A DNA stretch of 28,941 nucleotides from Candidatus Dormiibacterota bacterium (GTDB taxonomy: Bacteria; Chloroflexota; Dormibacteria; Aeolococcales; Bog-877), in contig DATDII010000192.1 in the NCBI GenBank assembly GCA_036521135.1, positions 1 to 28,941 of the forward strand, given 5' to 3'. The translations under genes were made by a program, and so were the position numbers. Under the pieces are notes generated by a model. That model was not told where the DNA came from, searched no databases, and worked only from the letters and a program-made list of their open reading frames with translations. Of the stretch, positions 76 through 11,671 are shown piece by piece; positions within the stretch are counted from its first letter, which is position 1; each line of letters opens with the position of its first letter.

Positions 76-1026
76 TCACGGGGCGAGCAGGGTCTTGATC
101 AGGGCCATCCGCACCGACACCCCGTTGCGGGCCTGGCGGAAGTAGGCGGCCCGGGGATCCTGGTCCACTGCCGGGTCGATCTCCCCGACCCTTGGCAGGG
201 GGTGCATCACGATCGCCCCCGGGGCCAGCCGCTCCATCACCCGCTCAGTGATCCTGAAGTCGCCGCGCTGGTCCTCGGAGTCGGTCCAGGGCTCGCTGAA
301 GCGCTCCACCTGGATCCGGGTCTGGTAGACGACGTCGGCGTCACCGACCGCAGCCAAGAGGTCCTCCGTCTCCCTGACCTTGGCCCCGTGCTTGAGCAGG
401 TGGTCGACCACCCCCTGGCTCATCCGGATCCGGTCAGGCGCGACCAGGGTGACCCGGAGGCCGGGGTAGAGCGCCAGGAGGTAGGCGAGCGAGTGGACGG
501 TGCGGCCGTGGCTGAGGTCGCCGACCATGACCACGTGCAGGTCGTCGAGCCGGCCGACCTCGCTCTGGATGGTGAAGAGGTCGAGCAGGGCCTGGGTCGG
601 GTGCTGGCCGGGCCCGTCCCCGGCGTTGACGATGGGGACCGGGGAGACCTCGGCCGCGCGCAGGGCGGCCCCTTCCTCGGAGTGGCGCAGGACGATGCAG
701 TCGGAGTAGCCGGCCACGATCCGGACCGTGTCCTCGAGGGTCTCGCCCTTGACCGCCGAGGAGAAGTCCCGGGCGTTCTCGGTGCTGATCACCTGGCCGC
801 CCAGGCGGAGCATCGCCGCCTCGAAGCTGAGCCGGGTCCTTGTGCTGGGCTCGTAGAAGAGCGTCGCCATGATCCGGCCGCTGAGGAGCTGGCCGCCCCC
901 TGCCTCCTTGAGCTGCTCCATCTCCGCCGTCAGCCGGAAGAGCTGGGCCAGGCGATCGCGATCGAACTGCTGGGCGGCGACCACGTGCTCGAGGGGGGTC
1001 GCCGCAGCGGGCCTGCTCGCCGCCAT
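76..1026 (-). CDS. pyrB: Aspartate carbamoyltransferase catalytic subunit (plant-like sequence type)
   Basis: Motifs FYEPSTRTRLSFE, NAGDGPGQHPTQALLD, YQTRIQ and MHPLPR. ATG 1026 is preferred over GTG 1032 because GGAGG (1036-1032) lies 5 nt upstream of it. Confidence 0.97.
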   Translation of the reverse strand: MAASRPAAATPLEHVVAAQQFDRDRLAQLFRLTAEMEQLKEAGGGQLLSGRIMATLFYEPSTRTRLSFEAAMLRLGGQVISTENARDFSSAVKGETLEDTVRIVAGYSDCIVLRHSEEGAALRAAEVSPVPIVNAGDGPGQHPTQALLDLFTIQSEVGRLDDLHVVMVGDLSHGRTVHSLAYLLALYPGLRVTLVAPDRIRMSQGVVDHLLKHGAKVRETEDLLAAVGDADVVYQTRIQVERFSEPWTDSEDQRGDFRITERVMERLAPGAIVMHPLPRVGEIDPAVDQDPRAAYFRQARNGVSVRMALIKTLLAP

Positions 1027-1090
1027 CTCCACCTCCCCAAGGGATCCCGGGGCTCGGCAGGCGGCCGCAGCGGCACCGCGCCGCTCAGCT

Positions 1091-2301: not shown

Positions 2302-3561
2302 TCACGAAACTCGCCCGGGCCGGTCGGCCGTCTCCAGCTGGGCCCGGATCTCGTCGACCAGGCCTTCCATCTCCGGTAGAAGTCCGCCGTCCGGCCCCAG
2401 GACGGGCCCCTCGAAGATGAACCGGGCCAGCTCCCGGCCGGGTCGGGACTGGCCCTGGACCAGGAGCGCCGACTCCCCTGGAAGGGGGCCGCTCAAGGGG
2501 AGCTCCGAGGTCGCGAGGTAGCGTCCGGACGCCGCCCTCTGGCCCCGGCTGCTGGCCACACCCGGCTCAGCCCGGCGCTGCCCTCGTTGGTAGAGGATGA
2601 GCTGCGACCAGTAGGAGTCGAGGCCCTGGTCGCTGCCCGGCGCCAAGCCAAAGCTGGCCAGGTGCTGCTCCAGGATTCCAGGTACCAGCTCGTCCCGGGC
2701 GCTCAGGCTGAAGAGGGGCACCGAGGCCACCAGCCGGGGGTTGATCTCGATGCAGCGGAGGTTCCCGTCGGTCCCCGCCACCAGGTCCAGCCCGAAGATG
2801 CCAAGGTGGCCGGCGCCCCTTAGCCACTCCGCGGCCCGCAGCGCCAGGCGGCGGATCTGGTCCGCCCCCGGAGGTGGCCGGTGGTAGTCGTTGCCGCAGG
2901 ACCCGAGCGGGTGCGGGGTCAGGCTCGGGATCCCGGTCAGCTGGATGCCTGCCTGGCCGACCAGGAGGCGCTCCCTTGAGACCACCCCGGTGACCGTGAC
3001 CGGGGTGCCGGCGATCCGCTCCGCGACCCGGCAGGGCCGGCCTCGGAACTGCTCGACCAGGCGCTCGAGCTGAGCCCGGTCAGGCACCGGGTAGGTGTGC
3101 TCGCCGGAGAAGCCCCGGGCCAGCTGGAAGACCAGGGGAAAGCGCAGCTCACCGGCTGACCGGAGCAGCTCCATGGTCGCCAGCCCGGTCTTGGTCGGGG
3201 GGGTCGGCAGACCCGCCTCCTCGGCGATCCGGCTGAACTGGCTCTTGTTCTCGATCCGGCGGGCGATCCGCGCCGGCGAGTTGGCGAGGAGAACGCCGAG
3301 GTCGCGGGCGACCGCCTCCGCTCCGGCCGAGCTCTTCCAGACCACGGCCGCCCCGAACCCGCCCTGGAGCCGCCGCTGCAGCTTCGGGTCCAGGAGCAGC
3401 GCCGAGGTGGAGCGGGCGCCGGTACCTGGGAAGGCCTCCCAAGCGGGCTGGCCGCCGGGAGCGATCCCGGCGCCGTCGGCGCAGAGGACCGGGAGCCCGC
3501 TCGCGATCGCCGGGAGCGGGTCGGGCCCGAGGAAGACCGCCTTGGACCTCGTTTCGGTCAT
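2302..3561 (-). CDS. ATP-grasp domain ligase, unknown substrate
   Basis: ENKSQF…AGLPTP, FPLVFQLARGFSGEHT, QLTG.P.LTP…GSCGND, GIFGLD, IEINPRL. Start overlaps the upstream stop (GTGA/ATGA-type 4-nt overlap, 3558-3561). Confidence 0.85.
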   Translation of the reverse strand: MTETRSKAVFLGPDPLPAIASGLPVLCADGAGIAPGGQPAWEAFPGTGARSTSALLLDPKLQRRLQGGFGAAVVWKSSAGAEAVARDLGVLLANSPARIARRIENKSQFSRIAEEAGLPTPPTKTGLATMELLRSAGELRFPLVFQLARGFSGEHTYPVPDRAQLERLVEQFRGRPCRVAERIAGTPVTVTGVVSRERLLVGQAGIQLTGIPSLTPHPLGSCGNDYHRPPPGADQIRRLALRAAEWLRGAGHLGIFGLDLVAGTDGNLRCIEINPRLVASVPLFSLSARDELVPGILEQHLASFGLAPGSDQGLDSYWSQLILYQRGQRRAEPGVASSRGQRAASGRYLATSELPLSGPLPGESALLVQGQSRPGRELARFIFEGPVLGPDGGLLPEMEGLVDEIRAQLETADRPGRVS

Positions 3562-4631
3562 GGCCGCTGGAACCCGGCCCCGGTGAGAATGCGGTCCAGC
3601 TCGCTCTCGGAGCTGGCCGAGGGCAGGTCGAGCTCGCGAGCCGGGGTTGGTGCCTGGTCGAGCTGGGCCTCGTCGCCGGTCAAGAGGGCGACCCAGGCTC
3701 CGGCCGGCCCGAGCCGCCGGCTCGCCGCCTCCCGCATCGCCGCCAGGGCGGCCAGGCCTTCCCAGGAGGTGCGCACACCCCGGCGCTCAGCCACCGGGCG
3801 GACGGCGGCGGCGGCGGCGCCCACCCGCCAGCCCCGTCCCCCGCTGGCGCGGACGGCCCGGCGGACGGCCGGGGCCAGCCGGGAGCGGTGGGTCCCGAGC
3901 TCGCCGAGGGTTGCCTCCGAGGTCGGCTCGCTTGTGCTCCGGCCGTACCAGGGCCGGGTCAGCTCACCCCCCGGTTCGCCCTCGACGATGTGCAGCTGGG
4001 GGCGCTCCTGGGCGGGGAGGAGCTGGTCGAACCCCTGGGCCAGACCCAGGGCCGAGGCACCGCTGCTGGAGAAGAGGAAGACGGCAGCCACCGGGCCCGC
4101 GTCCAGCAGCTCGGCGGCCAGACCCCGGTAGGCGTTGGGGGCGAGCCGGTTCACCGAGCCGCGCAGGTCGGCAAGGCCCCAGCTCTGGACAGCGTGGTGG
4201 AGCAGGGCAACCGGGCGGTCGCTGGTGACGGTCAGCTGCTGATAGATCCTCAGCCGATCGAGCTTGAGTCGAGGGGTCCGGGGGGAGACCAGGCTGAGGA
4301 GCCGGATCCCGCCCAGGGAGGCGTAGGCGGCGGCGGCGATGGCCGCGTTGCCACTGGAGGAGATCACGGCCTGGCGCTGGTTTCCGGCCACCAGCTCCGA
4401 GCAGAGCAGGCTCAGGCAGCGCCCCTTGTGGGACCCGCTTGGGGAGAGGTCCTCTCGCTTCAGGAGCAGGCCCGGGATCCCGAGGTCCCGGCCCAGCTCT
4501 GCTCCATCCTCCAGCGCCGTCCCGCCCTCGCCGAGAGAGAGCTGAGATGCAGCCGGTAGACTGACGCCGAAGAGGCGGGCATGGACCCACTGGCCCTGGG
4601 GCTGGCCCCCGCCCGGCTCAGGGGTGGACAT
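3558..4631 (-). CDS. Fold-type II PLP-dependent enzyme, threonine-synthase-like
   Basis: SLGEGGTAL, LKREDLSPSGSHKGR (Schiff-base Lys), SSSGNAA, phosphate loop FSSSGAS, SWEGLAALAA and VALLTG. Confidence 0.85.
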   Translation of the reverse strand: MSTPEPGGGQPQGQWVHARLFGVSLPAASQLSLGEGGTALEDGAELGRDLGIPGLLLKREDLSPSGSHKGRCLSLLCSELVAGNQRQAVISSSGNAAIAAAAYASLGGIRLLSLVSPRTPRLKLDRLRIYQQLTVTSDRPVALLHHAVQSWGLADLRGSVNRLAPNAYRGLAAELLDAGPVAAVFLFSSSGASALGLAQGFDQLLPAQERPQLHIVEGEPGGELTRPWYGRSTSEPTSEATLGELGTHRSRLAPAVRRAVRASGGRGWRVGAAAAAVRPVAERRGVRTSWEGLAALAAMREAASRRLGPAGAWVALLTGDEAQLDQAPTPARELDLPSASSESELDRILTGAGFQRP

Positions 4632-4645
4632 TGAGGAGGTTGTCC

Positions 4646-4819
4646 GTGGGCGGCATCGGCGCGACCGTGAAGCACTGCCCCGATTGCGGTGCCGAACTCG
4701 AGCTCGGCGACGTCGAGGAGGTGGGCGACCTGGTCGACTGCCCCAACTGCGGTGCCACCTTCGAGCTGATCGCCCTCACCCCCCTGACCCTGGCTCTCTT
4801 CGAGGACGAGGAGAAGTAG
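4646..4819 (+). CDS. LysW-like zinc-ribbon carrier protein, 57 aa, atypical C-terminus FEDEEK
   Basis: CPDCGAELELGDVEEVGDLVDCPNCGATFELIALTPLTL aligns with the LysW pattern CPECGAEL…ELGELVVCxxCGAELEVVGLDPLRL. The protein is acidic. Strong SD GAGGAGG (4633-4639) precedes GTG 4646. Confidence 0.85.
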   Translation: MGGIGATVKHCPDCGAELELGDVEEVGDLVDCPNCGATFELIALTPLTLALFEDEEK

Positions 4820-6314
4820 CGGCGCGGACCGCCTGACGGAAGCCGCCCTCGCGGTAGTGGGCGGAGAAGAATCCGGGGCAGGCGGGCGAGAGCAGGACCG
4901 CCTCCCCGGGCCTGGCCTCGGCCACCGCCGCCCGGACCGCCTCCTGCAGGTGCTCCGTCTTTCGAACCAGCTCCCCCTTGCCGGCGCTGCCGAGCTCGCC
5001 GGCGAGCCGGTCCGAGCCCGCGCCAGCGAGGAGGAAGACGAGCCGGACCGGGCCGCCGACCAGCGCCACCAGCTCACCGAAGTCGATGCCCTTGTCCTCG
5101 CCGCCGGCGATGAGGATGCAGGTCCGGCCCACACCCCTGACCGCGGCGACCGTGGATTGGGGGGTCGTGCTGGCGAGGTCGTCGATAAAGTCGACCCCCT
5201 GGTGCTGCCGCACCAGTTCGGTGCGGTGCCGCAGCGGCCGGAAGTCGGCGATCTCACGGGCGGCGGCGGCCAGCCGCTCGGGATCAGCCGGGGTGAGCGC
5301 CGCCAGCACCGTCAGGGCGGCCCGGACGTTGCTCTGGTTGTGGGCGCCGACGAGGCCGATCTGCTCCGCCGCCATAGCGGTCAGGGTCTCCTCATCCCAG
5401 CGGACCCGGATCTGGCCAGCCTCCTCGAAGGCTCCCGGCCGGCCCTCGAGGCCCGCCTCGGACCGGGCGAAGCGCAGCTCCCGGATGCCCTCCGCCAGGG
5501 GGGCGCCCTCGAGGCTGAGCCGGTCCTCCCCGTTCCGCACCGCCACCTCGCAGCCGGGCAGCTCGAAGATGCGGCGTTTGGCCCTGATGTAGCCCGCCAG
5601 CCCCTGATGCTCGTCGAGGTGGTTGGGCGAGATGTTGGTGAGGCAGCCGACCCTTGGGGCCCGGTCGAGCTGGAGCAGCTGGCGGTTGCTGATCTCCAGG
5701 ACCAGGCAGCTTCCCCCCTGGTCGCGGGCGACCTCCTCCAGCGCCTGGCGGTCGTGACGGTCGTTGCCGGCGAGCCAGACCTTCTGGTAGATCCCGGTCG
5801 CCCGCAGGACCGATGCCACCAGGGCGCTGGTCGTCGACTTGCCGTGGCTGCCAGTCACCCCGACCACCTCGCCCTTGGCCAGGTCGAGATAGGCCTGGAC
5901 CAGGGAGTAGAAGGGGTGGCCGCGGTCCTGCAGCTGGAGCAGGGGCGCGTTGGCGGGGGCCAGGAACCAGGCCTGGGTTGGGATGATCAGGGCCGAGTCG
6001 GCGATCCCCTCCAGGTAGCGGTCGGCGAGCCTTAGGGCCTGGAGGCCGGAGAGCAGCTCCTCGAGCCGGAGCTGCCGCTCCCGGCGGTCCAGCCCCGCGT
6101 GGGCCAGGGAGTGGGCCTGCTGGAGGTGCTCCAGGTCCGGTTGCTGGTCGTGACCGACGAGGTTGGTGAAGCCCGCCGCCACCAGGTAGCGGGCCATCTC
6201 GCCTCCCTCGACGCTGGCCACCCCGACCAGGTCGATCCGCCGGTCGCGGAGGTCGGCCAGGGCCGGCGGCACCCGGAGCGTCGCGGTCGCCGCCAGGGGG
6301 CCCGGAGACTCCAT
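4776..6314 (-). CDS. MurD-like ATP-dependent Mur ligase (divergent)
   Basis: GVTGSHGKSTT, VLEISNRQL, LTNISPNHLDEH, GAHNQSN, LRHRTELV, LIAGGEDKG, VLLSPAC. Start set at ATG 6314; the 758-aa ORF's upstream extension overlaps the NlpC/P60 gene and is spurious. Confidence 0.88.
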   Translation of the reverse strand: MESPGPLAATATLRVPPALADLRDRRIDLVGVASVEGGEMARYLVAAGFTNLVGHDQQPDLEHLQQAHSLAHAGLDRRERQLRLEELLSGLQALRLADRYLEGIADSALIIPTQAWFLAPANAPLLQLQDRGHPFYSLVQAYLDLAKGEVVGVTGSHGKSTTSALVASVLRATGIYQKVWLAGNDRHDRQALEEVARDQGGSCLVLEISNRQLLQLDRAPRVGCLTNISPNHLDEHQGLAGYIRAKRRIFELPGCEVAVRNGEDRLSLEGAPLAEGIRELRFARSEAGLEGRPGAFEEAGQIRVRWDEETLTAMAAEQIGLVGAHNQSNVRAALTVLAALTPADPERLAAAAREIADFRPLRHRTELVRQHQGVDFIDDLASTTPQSTVAAVRGVGRTCILIAGGEDKGIDFGELVALVGGPVRLVFLLAGAGSDRLAGELGSAGKGELVRKTEHLQEAVRAAVAEARPGEAVLLSPACPGFFSAHYREGGFRQAVRAATSPRPRREPGSGG

Positions 6315-6321
6315 CGGGGCT

Positions 6322-6327
6322 AGGTTA
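6322..6327 (-). promoter_or_regulatory. Putative -10 box (TAACCT) of leaderless murD-like transcript
   Basis: TANNNT 7 nt before ATG 6314; no SD. Confidence 0.5.
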
Positions 6328-6330
6328 GCG

Positions 6331-7206
6331 TCAGCGGGCAAGCGCTCCCGGGACTCGGCGCACGGTGAGAACCTGGTAGCGCTCGCGAAACTCGGCCAGC
6401 GGCTCGCGGCGGACCTCATGGCACTCGCTGCAGGCGTGGACCACCTCATCCCCTCCCAGGTAGATGGCGATGTGGCTGGTCCGCCGCGGCCCCCGGTGCA
6501 CGGCGCAGATGAGGTCGGCCTCGCGGAGGCCGGCGATGCGGATCCGTTCCCCGACCTGGCGCTGGGCCCGGCTGTTGCGGGGAAGCAGGACTCCCGCCGC
6601 CAGGTAGGCGCGCCAGACCAGGCCCGAGCAGTCCACTCCCTGACCACCGGTGCCGCCGAACACGTAGGGCCGGCCGAGCAGGGCGAGCGCGGTTGCCCGG
6701 ACCGACTCGATCGGCCAGCCCGATTCGGGCACGGCCAGGACGCCCGGATCCGCCTCGGCAAGGGCCGGGCCCCAGCGGAAGCGGGCGGAGCGCCCCACCC
6801 ATCCGACCGCCTGGCCTGGGGCCCGGACCAGGAACTGGCCCTCCCGGACCGCCAGCAGGGCGGCGGGCGGGTCGCCGGGCAGGAGCTGGGTGGTGAGCTC
6901 GGCAGGCTCGGTGTCGCCATCCGGGCGGTGGCGCCAGACGTCGAGCGGCGGACCGTCGGGGTAGAGGGCGAGGCGAGCCCGGCGCTCTGCCAGGACCAGC
7001 AGCGAGCAGCGGGCACCGGGCCAGATCGCCTCCAGGCGGGTCCGGAACTCAACCGCCTGGGAGGGCAGCGCGACCGTGCCCCGCCAGCCGTCGCCCGCCC
7101 GGCCCACCTCGATCAGGGCCTCGCCGTAGCGGAGCGTGGCCGCCGCCCGGAGCCGTTCGATCTCCGAGGCCACCGCGGAGACGAGATCGGCCGGGGTCGG
7201 GCTCAA
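6331..7206 (-). CDS. NlpC/P60 (C40) peptidase with N-terminal SH3-like domain, YkfC-like
   Basis: LLGRPYVFGG…DCSGLV (Cys), SHIAIY (His), VVHA (His), and an SH3b-like ELTTQLL…VGWV. TTG 7206 overlaps the upstream TGA (TTGA). No signal peptide is evident. Confidence 0.88.
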   Translation of the reverse strand: MSPTPADLVSAVASEIERLRAAATLRYGEALIEVGRAGDGWRGTVALPSQAVEFRTRLEAIWPGARCSLLVLAERRARLALYPDGPPLDVWRHRPDGDTEPAELTTQLLPGDPPAALLAVREGQFLVRAPGQAVGWVGRSARFRWGPALAEADPGVLAVPESGWPIESVRATALALLGRPYVFGGTGGQGVDCSGLVWRAYLAAGVLLPRNSRAQRQVGERIRIAGLREADLICAVHRGPRRTSHIAIYLGGDEVVHACSECHEVRREPLAEFRERYQVLTVRRVPGALAR

Positions 7207-8078
7207 CTGTCCCCGGCTCCGAAGAGGCGGCGCCAGCCCGACTGGGCGGTCGGCCGGCCCTCGGCCGGGTGGAGCTCCAAGCCCAGCCCGTCGGTCGTGA
7301 GCAGGACGGGGCTGAGCGGGAAGCTGGCCAGGCGGTAGAGCCGGCGCGCCAGCTCCAGCATCGGCTTGGGTTCCGCGGCCTCGCCCACGGCCGCCACCAC
7401 CATGGCCCGGTCGGGGGCGGCGATGGCCGCCCGGCCGCCGCCGAGCTGGCCCAGGCGCGCCAGGAACGCGGGCACCAGGAGCAGGCTGCTCGAGAAGAGG
7501 GCGTCGTCGGTGAAGAGCCAGGTCCGGTCCTTGGGATTCTGGTCCAGGACCGAGCCCCAGCGGGTCAGCCGAAGGCAGGTGTTGTAGTCGGCGTGCTGGG
7601 CCAGCTCGGAGGCGCTGAGACCGCCCGCCTCGGCCTCCGCCCGCGAGACTCCCCGCATCGCCTCGCCCGGGAGCGTCTCGGCGACGAAGGCGAGCAGACC
7701 GCCGGGAAGCTCCCTGGTGGCCAGCTCGGCGTAGCGGCGGTAGCGGCGGATGCTGCGCTCGGTCCTGACGCACCAGACCAGGCCGCCCGGGTCGGGCGCA
7801 GCCTGGGCCCGTTCGGGATGGGCCTCGGCCCCGCTCAGGCGGGGCCCGACCCCGGTCACAAAACGCGAGATTTGCTCGGGAACTGACACCTCGGGACGGT
7901 TGACCTCAGCGAACAGAGAGTCGAGCGAGAGCGACACCTGACAGCGCTCCTTGGCGGCGATGACGCCGAACCCCTCGGCCGCCGCCTGGAAACCCCAGTC
8001 CGAGTACCGTGCCCGGAGCTGGGTCAGGAGCCGCTCCTGAAACTCGCGCCGGGCCGATCCTAGTCGCGGGCCGGCCAC
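7203..8078 (-). CDS. Hypothetical protein, DUF1444 (YtpQ)-like
   Basis: C-terminal DDALFSSSLLL…FL…AIAAPDR…FPLSP resembles the DUF1444 pattern. The stop is coupled to the NlpC/P60 start. Family call by eye. Confidence 0.55.
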   Translation of the reverse strand: MAGPRLGSARREFQERLLTQLRARYSDWGFQAAAEGFGVIAAKERCQVSLSLDSLFAEVNRPEVSVPEQISRFVTGVGPRLSGAEAHPERAQAAPDPGGLVWCVRTERSIRRYRRYAELATRELPGGLLAFVAETLPGEAMRGVSRAEAEAGGLSASELAQHADYNTCLRLTRWGSVLDQNPKDRTWLFTDDALFSSSLLLVPAFLARLGQLGGGRAAIAAPDRAMVVAAVGEAAEPKPMLELARRLYRLASFPLSPVLLTTDGLGLELHPAEGRPTAQSGWRRLFGAGDS

Positions 8079-8277: not shown

Positions 8278-10266
8278 CTAGGTCCGGCTCTGGCGGCTGG
8301 CCACGTAGTCCACCAGGACGTAGTCACCGAGGCGGTCGGGACTGACGAAGAAGGCCCGGCCGCGGTTCTGTCGGGTCATCTGCTTGATGAACTGAACCAG
8401 GTACTGGTTGCTCTCCAACATGAAGGTGTTGATCACGATTCCGTCGCGGGTGCAGTGACGCACCTCCTGGAGCGTCTTTTGGAAGGTCTCCGGCAGGGGC
8501 GGGTACATAAAGACCGCGTGCGCGCCCTCCATGTGCGCGGTTGGCTCGCCATCGCTGACGATGATGACCTGGCGGTTGCCGACGCGGTGGCGATGGAGCA
8601 GGCGCCGCGCCAGCATCAGGCCGTGCTGCATGTTGGTGCCGTAGACGTACTCGCTGTAGGAGAGTTGCGCCAGCAGCGCCGGGCTGATCTCGCGCGCGTA
8701 ATCGGAGAATCCGACCACGTAGAGGGTGTCTCGGGGAAACTGGGTCCGGATCAGAGAATCCAGCGCCAGAGCCATTTTCTTGGCGGCGTAGAAGTAGCCC
8801 CGCAACGGCATGCTCCGGCTCATGTCGAGCATGAGAACGGTGCTGGTCTGCACGCTCCGCTCGGGTTCGCGGACCTCGAAGTCGGAGACGGCGAGACGGA
8901 GCGGGCGGCTGCCGTCGCTGTGACGGACGGCGTTCATCAGGGTGCGCTCGACGTCGAGGTTGAAGGCGTCGCCGAACTGGTAGGGCTTGCTGTAGTCGCC
9001 CAGCTCTGAGCCACTGCCGGCAGTCCCCTGGCGATGGCTGCCGAAGCCGTCGGCGGAGAGGTGCTGAAAGATGTCCGCCAGGGCCTTCTGGCCGATCTTG
9101 CGAACCCCCTGGGGGGTGAGCTCGAGCCCGGCCGGGTCGCGCCGGAGCTGGCCCTTGGCCTCCAGCTCCTTGACCAGCTCCTGGATCTGGGCGAGGCTGG
9201 CAGCCGACTCCGGACCCAGGCTCTCCGCCATCTGCTCCAGGAGCTCGCCCGGCAGCTCGACCCCGGCGTAGGCCTGGCGGACGCCCCGCTCGAGGGAGTC
9301 CAGCTGCTGCAGCTCCCCCATCACGTCGAGCGCCCCGGGGAGGTCGAGCTCCTCCCCGCCGAAGAAGGGAAACCGGGTGCCGGCGGTGGGCTGGGGCGAG
9401 ACCTGGCCAAGGAGCCGGGAGAGCTCAGCCAGCTGGGCCTGGAGCTCCTCGTCGTTGAGGCTGGCGCGCATGATCTCCTGGAGTTGCTGGCGCGTCTCCC
9501 GCGACGCCGACTCCAGCAGCGAGTTCAGCTCGGCCATCTGCTGGCGGAGCTGCTCGATGAAGCCCTCGAGGTCGTCCGGGTGGTCGGGGAAGTAGCTGCC
9601 CCAGCGCTCCATGAACTCCTGGTAGCCGGGGGGCTCACCCCGCTGCTGGCGCTGGAGCATCTGGTTGAGGTCGGAGACCATCTCCCTGAGCCGGCCCAGG
9701 TCCCGCTGATCGAGGGACTGGACCGCCTGGCCGAGGTCCTGGAAGTGGCGCTCGACCAGGCTCTGGCGCAGCTCGGCGAGGAGGTCCTGGAACTCCTGGC
9801 GCGCCTGCTGGTCGAGGAACTCGTAGTCCTGGAGGGCCCGGATCGCCGACCCCGCCTCGGGAGGGAGGCTGTCCAGCTGCTCGAGCCGAGCCCGGGTGAG
9901 CCGCTCGATCAGGCGCTCGCGGTCGGTGCCCGCAGCCGAGCTGGCTCGCTCGCCAAGCGTCTGGCGCTCCTTCTGGAGGATTCGGTCGAGGCGCTCCTCC
10001 AGGTCGCGGAAGAGGCCGTCGAGGTTGTAGCGCTCGAGCTTCTCCTGGCGCTGCTGGCGGAGCTGCTCGAGGACTTCCTCGAGGCCCCGGAGCTGGCGCC
10101 CCTGGCTGTCCTTGAACCCCTGGCTGAGCAGGCGCCGGAGCGCGGACTCGAAGTCCCAGCCGTGGAAGACGTCCTCGGCCAGGCGGGCGAAGAGCTCGCT
10201 GGGGTCGGGGAGATCCCCGGCCTGGCTGCCGTCCCAGCGGCTGTAGCGGAGCCGGACAGCGGCCAC
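8278..10266 (-). CDS. von Willebrand factor A domain protein (Rv0959-like)
   Basis: N-terminal RYSRWDGSQ, a long coiled-coil region, and MIDAS DMSRS, GTNMQHGL, IVSDGEPTAH. Confidence 0.88.
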   Translation of the reverse strand: MAAVRLRYSRWDGSQAGDLPDPSELFARLAEDVFHGWDFESALRRLLSQGFKDSQGRQLRGLEEVLEQLRQQRQEKLERYNLDGLFRDLEERLDRILQKERQTLGERASSAAGTDRERLIERLTRARLEQLDSLPPEAGSAIRALQDYEFLDQQARQEFQDLLAELRQSLVERHFQDLGQAVQSLDQRDLGRLREMVSDLNQMLQRQQRGEPPGYQEFMERWGSYFPDHPDDLEGFIEQLRQQMAELNSLLESASRETRQQLQEIMRASLNDEELQAQLAELSRLLGQVSPQPTAGTRFPFFGGEELDLPGALDVMGELQQLDSLERGVRQAYAGVELPGELLEQMAESLGPESAASLAQIQELVKELEAKGQLRRDPAGLELTPQGVRKIGQKALADIFQHLSADGFGSHRQGTAGSGSELGDYSKPYQFGDAFNLDVERTLMNAVRHSDGSRPLRLAVSDFEVREPERSVQTSTVLMLDMSRSMPLRGYFYAAKKMALALDSLIRTQFPRDTLYVVGFSDYAREISPALLAQLSYSEYVYGTNMQHGLMLARRLLHRHRVGNRQVIIVSDGEPTAHMEGAHAVFMYPPLPETFQKTLQEVRHCTRDGIVINTFMLESNQYLVQFIKQMTRQNRGRAFFVSPDRLGDYVLVDYVASRQSRT

Positions 10267-10276
10267 CGCGGCTTGC

Positions 10277-11671
10277 CTAGCTGCCGTAGACGGCGGTGCC
10301 GTCGACCTGGGCCTTGTTCAGCCGCTTGGCCAGGTGGAGCCCCTCCAGGACCAGCTCGAGGGCGGCGGCCACCGAGCCCGGCTGCTGGGGCTCGTCGAGG
10401 TCGCTGAGGATCCGCTTCATCTCGGGGATGCCGTCGGCGAGCTGGAGGTAGCGGGCCGCCTCGACCATCTCGCCCACCTCGATGGTCAGGCCCTGCTCAA
10501 AGCGCGCCAGCATCGGGGCGAACTCCTGGAGGGCGAAGTGGCGCCGGAAGACGTTGCCGGTGGCGCTGCGGAGCAGCTTCTCGAGGACCGCCTGGTCCTC
10601 GCCCTCCTCCCAGGTCTCGAGCTCGAGCTTCCCGAGCGTCGAGGCGGAGAGGGCGCTCAGGTCGCTGAGCCGGGGCACCGCCTCGGGCTCCCCCAGGCTG
10701 ATCGTCCGGCGGACGGCGTTGGCGCAGAGGCTCTCGAAGTTGGCGATCGAGAGCCGGACCGAGACCCCCGAGCGCTGGTTGATCTGGGTGGTCCGCCGGG
10801 CCAGCTGGGAGATCTCGGCCACCAGCTCGAGCATGTACTGGGGAACGTGGACCGGGATGCCCAGGCCGGCGAACTGGTCCCGCTCCTGCTCGATGATCTC
10901 GGCCTCGGCCTCAGGCGACCGCGGGTAGTGGGTTCGGATCTGGGCGCCGAAGCGGTCCTTGAGCGGGGTGATGATCCGCCCCCGGTTGGTGTAGTCCTCG
11001 GGGTTGGCGGTGGCCACGACCAGGACGTCGAGGGGGAGGCGCACCTGGAAGCCACGGATCTGGACGTCCCGCTCCTCCATGATGTTGAGCAGGCCCACCT
11101 GGATCCGCTCGGCCAGATCGGGGAGCTCGTTGATCGCGAAGATGCCCCGGTTGACCCGGGGAAGCAGGCCGTAGTGGATGGTGAGCTCGTCGGCCAGGTA
11201 GCGGCCCTCGGCGACCCGGATCGGGTCGACCTCGCCGATCAGGTCGGCGATGGACGTGTCGGGGGTCGCCAGCTTCTCCCCGAAGCGGTCCTGGCGCCCG
11301 ATCCACCCGACCGGCGTCTCGTCGCCCAGCTCGGCGACCAGGTCGCGGCCGAACCGGCTGATCGGGGCGTAGGGGTGGTCATGGACCTCGCTGCCTCGGA
11401 TGACCGGGATCTGCTCGTCGAGGAGCTCGGCTAGGGCGCGGATCAGCCGCGACTTGGCCTGACCCCGCTCGCCCAGGAAAACGATGTCCTGGCCCGCCAG
11501 GATCGCGTTCTCGATCTGGGGCAGCACCGTGTCCTGGTAGCCGACCAGGCCCGAGAAGCGCTCCCGACCCTGGCGCAGTGCCTCGACCAGGTTGTCCCGC
11601 AGCTCCTCCCGGACCGAGCGCATCCGGTACTCGCTGCCCCGCAATTCACCGAGGGTGCTGGGAAGTGCCAA
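10277..11671 (-). CDS. ChlI/Mg-chelatase-like AAA+ ATPase (Rv0958-like)
   Basis: Walker A-like GERGQAKS, NRGIFAINELPDL, ATANPEDYTNRGRIITPLKDRFG. Directly upstream of the vWA gene. Confidence 0.9.
   Translation of the reverse strand: MALPSTLGELRGSEYRMRSVREELRDNLVEALRQGRERFSGLVGYQDTVLPQIENAILAGQDIVFLGERGQAKSRLIRALAELLDEQIPVIRGSEVHDHPYAPISRFGRDLVAELGDETPVGWIGRQDRFGEKLATPDTSIADLIGEVDPIRVAEGRYLADELTIHYGLLPRVNRGIFAINELPDLAERIQVGLLNIMEERDVQIRGFQVRLPLDVLVVATANPEDYTNRGRIITPLKDRFGAQIRTHYPRSPEAEAEIIEQERDQFAGLGIPVHVPQYMLELVAEISQLARRTTQINQRSGVSVRLSIANFESLCANAVRRTISLGEPEAVPRLSDLSALSASTLGKLELETWEEGEDQAVLEKLLRSATGNVFRRHFALQEFAPMLARFEQGLTIEVGEMVEAARYLQLADGIPEMKRILSDLDEPQQPGSVAAALELVLEGLHLAKRLNKAQVDGTAVYGS

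Follow-up and report, generated by a model that had tools for sequence, protein, structure and literature searches.

The 28,941-nucleotide contig DATDII010000192.1 (the window in what follows; 72% G+C) belongs to assembly GCA_036521135.1, a 1.83 Mb metagenome-assembled genome (MAG) of Candidatus Dormibacteria in 246 contigs, 86% complete and designated G000 here. Between positions 2302 and 7206 the window holds five closely packed genes, encoding an ATP-grasp ligase, a pyridoxal phosphate (PLP) enzyme, a small LysW-like protein, a divergent MurD-type ligase (MurD*) and an NlpC/P60 peptidase. The original prediction, made from the sequence alone, had read this locus as a carrier-protein pathway tied to peptidoglycan. 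We find that the five genes form a unit shared by several phyla, that they occur only in bacteria without either established route to D-glutamate (D-Glu), and that the module probably serves the D-Glu/MurD step of cell wall synthesis.

All five genes are real according to the listing of open reading frames (ORFs) and to Pfam/NCBIfam scans, and their packing is as predicted. The ATP-grasp gene (419 amino acids, 2302..3561, minus strand; PF02655, 29.8 bits) overlaps by 4 nt, at 3558-3561, the gene of a fold-type II PLP enzyme, ThrC-like but of a distinct family (357 amino acids, 3558..4631, minus strand; PF00291, 124.7 bits). The MurD* gene (512 amino acids, 4776..6314, minus strand; Mur_ligase_M and Mur_ligase_C domains) is separated by a 16-nt gap at 6315-6330 from that of a cysteine peptidase of the NlpC/P60 (C40) family and probable YkfC/dipeptidyl-peptidase VI type (291 amino acids, 6331..7206, minus strand; PF00877, 71.2 bits). 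The gene for the LysW-like zinc-ribbon protein, a putative carrier (57 amino acids, 4646..4819, plus strand), runs opposite to the other four: it is divergent from the PLP gene and convergent with the 3' end of the MurD* gene, which it overlaps by 44 nt at 4776-4819. A GAGGAGG ribosome-binding site of its own (4633-4639) precedes its GTG start codon at 4646. The MurD* tail encoded under this overlap is unconserved and modeled with low confidence. The inverted orientation of the carrier gene recurs in both Dormibacteria groups and in the Patescibacteria loci, and the remaining lineages have it co-directional with the other module genes. The remainder of the window contains no division and cell wall (dcw), lysine or arginine pathway gene in Pfam/NCBIfam scans, again as predicted.

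The carrier protein

The small protein contains two CxxC pairs, CPDC and CPNC, in a zinc-ribbon domain that scores 45.7 bits against PF21344, above the gathering score of 27. Its predicted likeness to LysW is thereby upheld, whereas its identity with canonical LysW is not: it reaches 44.8 bits on the lysW equivalog model TIGR01206, under the cut-off of 53.2, and ends in FEDEEK. Canonical LysW has the tail EDWGE, with the gamma-carboxyl of the terminal Glu as the attachment site. The carriers of relatives are 55-83% identical to the window protein, and a C-terminal Glu-Lys is present in all 24 orthologs from several phyla, as E-E-K in 22 and D-E-K in 2 (the usual tails are FEEEEK or YEQEEK, and LLEEK in Shapirobacteria). 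Since the tail ends in Lys, the tethering chemistry of canonical LysW is inapplicable. The tail sequence suggests that the reactive group of the carrier is probably an amine, the epsilon-NH2 of Lys, rather than a Glu gamma-carboxylate, so that the polarity would be inverted.

In relatives (G013, for example), a canonical LysW ending in EEDWGE adjoins a LysX-like gene elsewhere on the chromosome; because this LysW-LysX pair stands separately, the E-E-K protein is a paralog distinct from LysW. Public records nevertheless call it 'lysine biosynthesis protein LysW', which is a mis-annotation. A homology search with the 57-residue carrier gave no match outside Dormibacteria and none from a cultured organism, and all of its matches bore the LysW name.

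The MurD* ligase

MurD* scores 199.6 bits against the MurD model TIGR01087, below the cut-off of 211.95, and matches only positions 73-422 of this hidden Markov model (HMM). Its enlarged N-terminal domain, which carries an inserted helical segment, is not matched. An AlphaFold2 (AF2) model with a predicted local distance difference test (pLDDT) score of 92.7 aligns with MurD structures over its full length; these make up the whole of the top 33 PDB matches, at a target-normalized template modeling (TM) score of up to 0.83. MurD* thus shares with canonical MurD (E. coli 1UAG to 4UAG; P. aeruginosa 8DP2) the three-domain fold, and it retains the P-loop (GSHGKST), the catalytic histidine of NHLDEH, the carbamoyl-lysine position (AKRRIF), GGxDKG and LLSPAC. 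By contrast, the canonical DSKATN motif is replaced by DDLxSTT (DDLASTT in the window protein), and new invariant arginines appear in GNDR and SNRxL. We take the Thr in STT, the Lys in GGxDKG and the Ser in LLSPAC to be equivalents of the D-Glu-contacting residues of E. coli MurD.

Whether the genome has a second, canonical murD was a question raised with the original prediction. No second murD is present, and MurD* is the best and only MurD homolog in G000 and in its relatives, one single-contig genome included. A maximum-likelihood tree of reading frames chosen by homology places all 24 MurD* sequences in one clade (97/90) and the MurL-associated ligases in another (99/84), with canonical MurD apart; mapping the three labels onto this tree takes no more changes than the minimum. 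On sequence grounds, MurD* is a distinct subfamily. The other Mur ligases of G000, namely MurF, a MurC/Mpl-like enzyme and MurE, are encoded elsewhere in the genome. The MurC-like ligase on contig C17 (L003:1501-2571(-)) scores 216 bits as Mpl and 213 bits as MurC, both under the cut-off, in the fragment that was scanned.

The PLP enzyme, ATP-grasp ligase and peptidase

The PLP enzyme scores 21.9 bits on the thrC model TIGR00260, for which the cut-off is 167.1. A profile search against the PDB puts the family nearest to threonine synthases (E 5e-37), and fold-type II serine and aspartate racemases are also among its profile matches. Invariant in 22 orthologs are the PLP lysine K69 in GSHK, the SSSGN loop and R157. 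The Arg of the ThrC motif NPYRxEGQK, presumably a phosphate-binding residue, aligns with a conserved Ala in this family, which also lacks EGQKT. As anticipated, the enzyme is distinct from the housekeeping threonine synthase; two full-length canonical thrC genes lie elsewhere in the genome, on contig C89 at 2760-3743(+) and 5004-5987(+), with scores of 251 and 256 bits and about 1.3 kb apart.

The ATP-grasp ligase, to which the original prediction gave the loading role of LysX/ArgX, does not resemble those enzymes. It scores 15.8 bits on the LysX model TIGR02144 (cut-off 275.6) and 28.2 bits on TIGR00768 (cut-off 143.4), and it has no sequence match in the PDB. The nearest folds to its AF2 model (pLDDT 94.5) are biotin carboxylase, PurK, PurD and L-amino-acid ligase; LysX and RimK are absent from the top 50 fold matches. 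The motif LGSCGND[WY] is conserved. We propose that this protein is the carrier-loading enzyme.

For the peptidase, the best sequence matches in the PDB are 3NPF and 3PVQ (dipeptidyl-peptidase VI), followed by 8ER5 and 7CFL (bare NlpC/P60 domains) and then 3H41, which we take to be B. cereus YkfC. The predicted likeness to YkfC is thereby supported, and one to dipeptidyl-peptidase VI is added. The triad of C193, H245 and H257 is invariant in 16 orthologs, as is a GW motif in the N-terminal domain, a putative SH3b-like domain that matches weakly. The N-terminus, read by eye, has no signal-peptide-like stretch, and the enzyme is predicted to be cytoplasmic.

Conservation of the module

The five-gene arrangement is kept in 7/7 relatives with fetched loci; locus L023 stops within the cluster. 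In the family of the window genome (family f1) the whole neighborhood is syntenic, including the flanking DnaJ and von Willebrand factor A (VWA) genes, and such within-family synteny is, on its own, little proof of a unit. The arrangement extends far beyond the family. A metagenome contig with a 34%-identical ATP-grasp homolog carries a co-directional NlpC_P60-Mur ligase-LysW-PALP-ATP-grasp row between unrelated flanks, and a second contig carries a LysW, PALP and ATP-grasp row. An exhaustive search returned 469 representative ATP-grasp relatives at E<1e-10. We scanned one genome per GTDB species with 11 ATP-grasp sequences sharing GSCGNDW and annotated the resulting 62 loci with home-built HMMs. 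Every close ATP-grasp ortholog with enough flanking DNA sits inside the same gene set, apart from a few in Thermoleophilia. The lineages with the set are a second Dormibacteria group, Thermoleophilia/Gaiellales, Anaerolineae, Caldilineae and Ca. Epilinea, together with MAGs labeled Rickettsiales or Deltaproteobacteria; Patescibacteria have it partly. The mention of similar genes in Patescibacteria in the original prediction proved correct in the genome-scan loci and in the carrier tails.

Several of the proteins are fused in one lineage or another. PALP-ATP-grasp fusions were found in the protein search (P0102, P0113, P0183, P0169) and among the genome loci (L039, L048, L062), as were ATP-grasp-NlpC/P60 fusions (P0172 and L068, respectively). 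NlpC-MurD* fusions occur at L042, L057, L064 and L066, and a MurD*-PALP fusion at L075. With synteny across phyla despite differing flanks, and with fusions of four kinds, a chance neighborhood is excluded. The five genes are a functional unit in an arrangement far beyond chance, and the co-occurrence in other genomes that the original prediction called for is borne out by this synteny and by these Rosetta-stone fusions.

The unit is not always contiguous: in the Thermoleophilia/Gaiellales loci L034, L035, L036 and L037, a close ATP-grasp ortholog lies 6-8 kb from the PLP, carrier, MurD* and NlpC genes or occurs without them. Some Patescibacteria have the four other genes without an adjacent MurD*, and P0075/L027 has the ATP-grasp alone, with no module neighbors. 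PLP enzyme matches of 27-28% identity in the sister-family genomes G030, G034, G038 and G039 were considered as divergent modules and rejected, as they have no ATP-grasp, carrier or MurD neighbors.

D-glutamate supply genes

D-Glu is considered universal at stem-peptide position 2, and to our knowledge only two routes to it are established: free D-Glu made by MurI or a D-amino-acid transaminase and added by MurD, and the MurD2 plus MurL pathway. We sampled 41 genomes from the order of the window genome, 25 from family f1 and 16 from a sister family (f2), and searched them for MurI (TIGR00067), MurL (NF041275) and MurD (TIGR01087). The genomes split three ways without exception. All 25 genomes of family f1 carry the module and a single MurD* of 178-208 bits, and have no MurL; TIGR00067 likewise detects no MurI in G000 or its 24 family relatives. 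In the sister family, nine genomes have MurI and a canonical MurD of 359-378 bits (273 in one, where the gene is cut by a contig end), and seven have a MurL of 348-487 bits directly adjoining a MurD2-type ligase of 257-313 bits. The class IV aminotransferases of G000 that match the D-amino-acid transaminase model TIGR01121 are IlvE, scoring above the IlvE cut-offs, and not D-amino-acid transaminase.

The same holds at greater distances. MurI above the cut-off, MurL and canonical full-length MurD are all missing from the 23 module genomes that the ATP-grasp search identified in other lineages; MurD*-type proteins are the best match in 21/23, and two Shapirobacteria module MAGs (0.5 and 0.9 Mb) have no MurD match. 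Of 151 evenly sampled Chloroflexota genomes, 98 have MurI, among them none of the four that carry the module. The module is mutually exclusive with MurI and with MurL/MurD2. The original prediction suggested a non-canonical amino acid or muropeptide salvage; this exclusion points instead to the D-Glu step at position 2. As the module is found only in bacteria that have neither of the known routes, it is probably a third one.

The only sizeable MurI-like match among module genomes is found in the Anaerolineae genome of locus L062 (G054:C90:1473-2066). It scores 99.7 bits against a cut-off of 146.65, covers HMM positions 38-221, and could be a truncated MurI or another member of the Asp/Glu-racemase family. 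Four planctomycetes (G064, G065, G067, G069; loci L070, L073, L085, L092) with only a distant ATP-grasp (47-189 bits) lack both MurI and MurL; a canonical MurD is present in two of these genomes, and the other two have no MurD match at E<=1e-25.

The seven sister-family genomes with MurL next to a MurD2-type ligase and no MurI include G029, G030, G034, G036 and G039; examples of the pair are L095:6938-8311(-) with L095:5566-6951(-), and L096:3510-4931(+) with L096:4928-6298(+). These occurrences extend the MurD2/MurL pathway to Dormibacteria and Chloroflexota, beyond the taxa given in PMC8788868, which are only some Gamma- and Alphaproteobacteria and rare actinobacteria.

A proposed pathway

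We infer, with a probability of about 0.6, that the carrier and the four enzymes make up one pathway that installs D-Glu at stem-peptide position 2 independently of MurI and MurL. The C-terminal Lys of the carrier, with its epsilon-amine and free alpha-carboxylate, resembles the diamino acid at position 3, and from this resemblance we propose four steps. The ATP-grasp enzyme would couple the gamma-carboxyl of L-Glu to the epsilon-amino group of the C-terminal Lys, leaving the alpha-amino and alpha-carboxyl groups of Glu free. The ThrC-like PLP enzyme would then racemize the tethered Glu at C-alpha, and MurD* would join UDP-N-acetylmuramic acid (UDP-MurNAc)-L-Ala to the alpha-amino group of the tethered D-Glu, giving a product that mimics UDP-MurNAc-L-Ala-gamma-D-Glu-Lys. 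Cleavage of the gamma-D-Glu-Lys bond by the YkfC-type NlpC/P60 enzyme would yield the normal MurE substrate and regenerate the carrier. On this scheme a peptidoglycan precursor may be partly assembled on a protein, the Lys epsilon-amine of the carrier standing in for the position-3 diamino acid, a suggestion we make tentatively. The substrate, attachment point, racemase activity and step order are all presumptive, and it is doubtful that the four steps take place exactly as drawn.

There are precedents for the first two reactions. Graspetide ligases are ATP-grasp enzymes that form amides between Glu or Asp side chains and Lys epsilon-amines, and fold-type II serine and aspartate racemases exist. 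PLP chemistry requires a free alpha-amino group, which argues for a side-chain tether and not the amine tether of LysW systems. Loading of Glu through its alpha-amine onto a carrier carboxylate, following LysX, was dropped for this reason, since it would block the PLP chemistry. We also discarded carboxylation of the carrier lysine by the ATP-grasp enzyme, in analogy to biotin carboxylase and PurK, which offers no chemically sensible route to Glu, and a cyanophycin- or poly-gamma-glutamate-like polymerase composed of the ATP-grasp and Mur ligases, given that the ligase is the only MurD of the genome.

A number of observations weigh against the proposed pathway. The PLP enzyme is related most closely to threonine synthases and dehydratases and not to racemases, so beta/gamma-replacement or elimination is equally compatible with its fold. 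MurD* keeps the Ser of LLSPAC, which presumably binds the gamma-carboxylate of D-Glu, and with such positions kept, free D-Glu may still be its substrate. YkfC-type enzymes cut gamma-D-Glu joined to the alpha-amino group of Lys or diaminopimelate and need a free N-terminal L-Ala, whereas the isopeptide proposed here as the peptidase substrate is epsilon-linked and blocked at its N-terminus. Activation of alpha-carboxylates is more common among ATP-grasp enzymes. The genomic pattern has its own weaknesses: some Thermoleophilia keep the ATP-grasp 6-8 kb away from the other module genes or lack these, and 49/151 Chloroflexota genomes have neither MurI nor the module, some of them being wall-less Dehalococcoidia or MurL users and others unexplained. 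The co-occurrence counts are not phylogenetically independent and represent, by our estimate, about six lineages; G000 is 86% complete, and the module genomes are mostly MAGs. A moonlighting racemase, of the type of the Chlamydia DapF (PMC5885031), is another possible source of D-Glu.

The main rival to tethered synthesis leaves the ligase out of it: the carrier, ATP-grasp, PLP enzyme and peptidase would act as an ATP-driven glutamate racemase, the peptidase would free D-Glu stereoselectively, and MurD* would use it as free D-Glu. Such a division of labor explains the exclusion of MurI and MurL equally well, agrees with the MurD fold and the equivalents of the presumed D-Glu-contacting residues kept in MurD*, and suits the Patescibacteria in which the other four genes lack an adjacent MurD*. 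We consider it unlikely, however, because wherever the module occurs MurD* falls in a clade of its own that diverged long ago and has a larger N-terminal domain and a changed DSKATN motif, which would be unexpected of a ligase with unchanged substrates, and because the NlpC-MurD* and MurD*-PALP fusions suggest that the ligase acts within a complex.

The alternatives in which D-Glu is not the product are less likely still. The PLP enzyme could build another or a modified residue on the carrier by beta- or gamma-replacement, for example a carrier-lysine amine adduct from O-phosphoserine or O-phosphohomoserine, or a hydroxylated or amidated Glu analog, for MurD* to insert at position 2. Threonine synthase, its closest relative, is a beta,gamma-replacement enzyme; the SbnA-type matches provide a precedent for amine nucleophiles in fold-type II enzymes, as CysM/CysO does for a carrier C-terminus attacking a PLP-aminoacrylate; and the motif of the D-Glu site is altered in MurD*. 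Yet a cysteine peptidase would be unable to release a secondary-amine adduct, the ThrC Arg that we take to bind phosphate is not conserved, and the strict exclusion with both known D-Glu routes argues that the product replaces the D-Glu supply itself. The strict conservation described for D-Glu at position 2 (PMC5885031) also counts against replacement, which we regard as improbable. Least probable is a set for muropeptide recycling or remodeling, or an assembly of unrelated neighbors with the LysW-like protein engaged in lysine or arginine biosynthesis. The public name of the small protein and the DnaJ and VWA flanks conserved within family f1 would agree with it, and in B. subtilis an operon for murein-peptide catabolism includes YkfC-type peptidases. 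The salvage reading does not hold, since the module ligase is the sole MurD of the genome and must serve de novo synthesis. Unrelated neighbors are contradicted by the cross-phylum synteny with different flanks and the four kinds of fusion, and a role in lysine or arginine biosynthesis by the E-E-K tail in place of EDWGE, the lack of an adjacent LysX, LysZ, LysY, LysJ or LysK, and the separate LysW-LysX pair in relatives.

Comparison with known systems

In the LysW/ArgW amino-group carrier protein (AmCP) systems, LysW works with LysX, LysZ, LysY, LysJ and LysK in Thermus, Sulfolobus and Thermococcus, and AmCP pathways are also part of Streptomyces secondary metabolism. The module shares with them a homologous small acidic zinc-ribbon carrier and the joint encoding of an ATP-grasp enzyme, a modifying enzyme and a releasing hydrolase, which follows a logic of loading, modification and release. 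It differs in the Glu-Lys end of the carrier, mostly E-E-K, and in an ATP-grasp enzyme that is not of the RimK/LysX type; it has no kinase, reductase or aminotransferase and includes a Mur ligase. LysK is an M20-type metallohydrolase, and the release enzyme of the module is instead a C40 cysteine peptidase. The amino-group-carrier logic ascribed to the locus in the original prediction thus stands as a manner of working, but the defining marks of such a system, that is, the tail, a LysX-type ligase and the LysZ, LysY, LysJ and LysK genes, are absent.

CysO-CysM-Mec+ of Mycobacterium tuberculosis, where the carrier C-terminus reacts in a fold-type II PLP enzyme and a dedicated peptidase releases the product, offers the same combination of a small carrier, a fold-type II PLP enzyme and a dedicated release peptidase. 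Its carrier is ubiquitin-like with a thiocarboxylate, however, its reaction is a beta-replacement, and it involves no ligases or Mur enzymes. With YkfC and dipeptidyl-peptidase VI (3H41, 3NPF, 3PVQ) the module peptidase has in common the Cys-His-His triad, an N-terminal accessory domain and the lack of a signal peptide, as judged by eye. Unlike them, it invariably accompanies the carrier module, in some cases as a fusion with MurD* or ATP-grasp, and its presumed substrate is a protein-linked gamma-glutamyl-lysine rather than the free murein tripeptide of YkfC.

The MurD2/MurL pathway of Xanthomonas oryzae (Feng et al. 2017; review, PMC8788868) is confined to genomes without glutamate racemase and D-amino-acid transaminase. 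It is functionally analogous to the module, in that both have a divergent MurD paralog and, if the proposal made here is right, an energy-dependent inversion of stereochemistry. No MurL homolog is present in any module genome (25 from family f1 and 23 others), however, and the MurD* clade is separate from MurD2. In the proposed scheme a PLP enzyme would bring about the inversion on a protein carrier, in contrast to the ATP-dependent epimerization of a nucleotide dipeptide.

Other genes of the window

Upstream of the module lies a gene for a DUF1444-like protein (291 amino acids, 7203..8078, minus strand), a lineage-specific neighbor outside the conserved module. Its stop codon and the TTG start of the NlpC/P60 gene overlap in TTGA, indicating translational coupling. 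The protein has no match in Pfam or NCBIfam, the DUF1444-bearing protein-atlas clusters are mostly from Dormibacteria, and the gene stands beside the module only in family f1. A VWA-domain protein (662 amino acids, 8278-10266(-)) adjoins a MoxR-like AAA ATPase (10277-11671(-)), and this pair is kept upstream of the module across the whole of family f1. The window also encodes a pyrB-like aspartate/ornithine carbamoyltransferase at 76-1032(-), which a separate sequence-only prediction had described as plant-type ATCase-like, DnaJ, ATP-binding cassette (ABC) transporters and an amidohydrolase.

Implications

Full-text literature searches found no published description of the module, which is apparently undescribed. 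New here are the three-way partition within one order, the MurD tree and the two structure models. If the proposed pathway is true, it would be a third and phylogenetically widespread solution to the supply of D-Glu, present in Dormibacteria, Anaerolineae, Thermoleophilia, bacteria of the candidate phyla radiation (CPR) and others, and it would contain the first carrier-protein step in cell wall precursor synthesis. It would also correct the widespread mis-annotation of the small protein as a LysW of lysine biosynthesis and provide new lineage-specific enzyme targets. Failure to detect MurI or a canonical MurD has left many uncultured lineages with wall pathways scored as 'incomplete', a gap that would be closed for CPR bacteria, Dormibacteria, Thermoleophilia and many Anaerolineae. 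The amino-group-carrier principle would then reach into primary cell wall metabolism, with its chemistry reversed.

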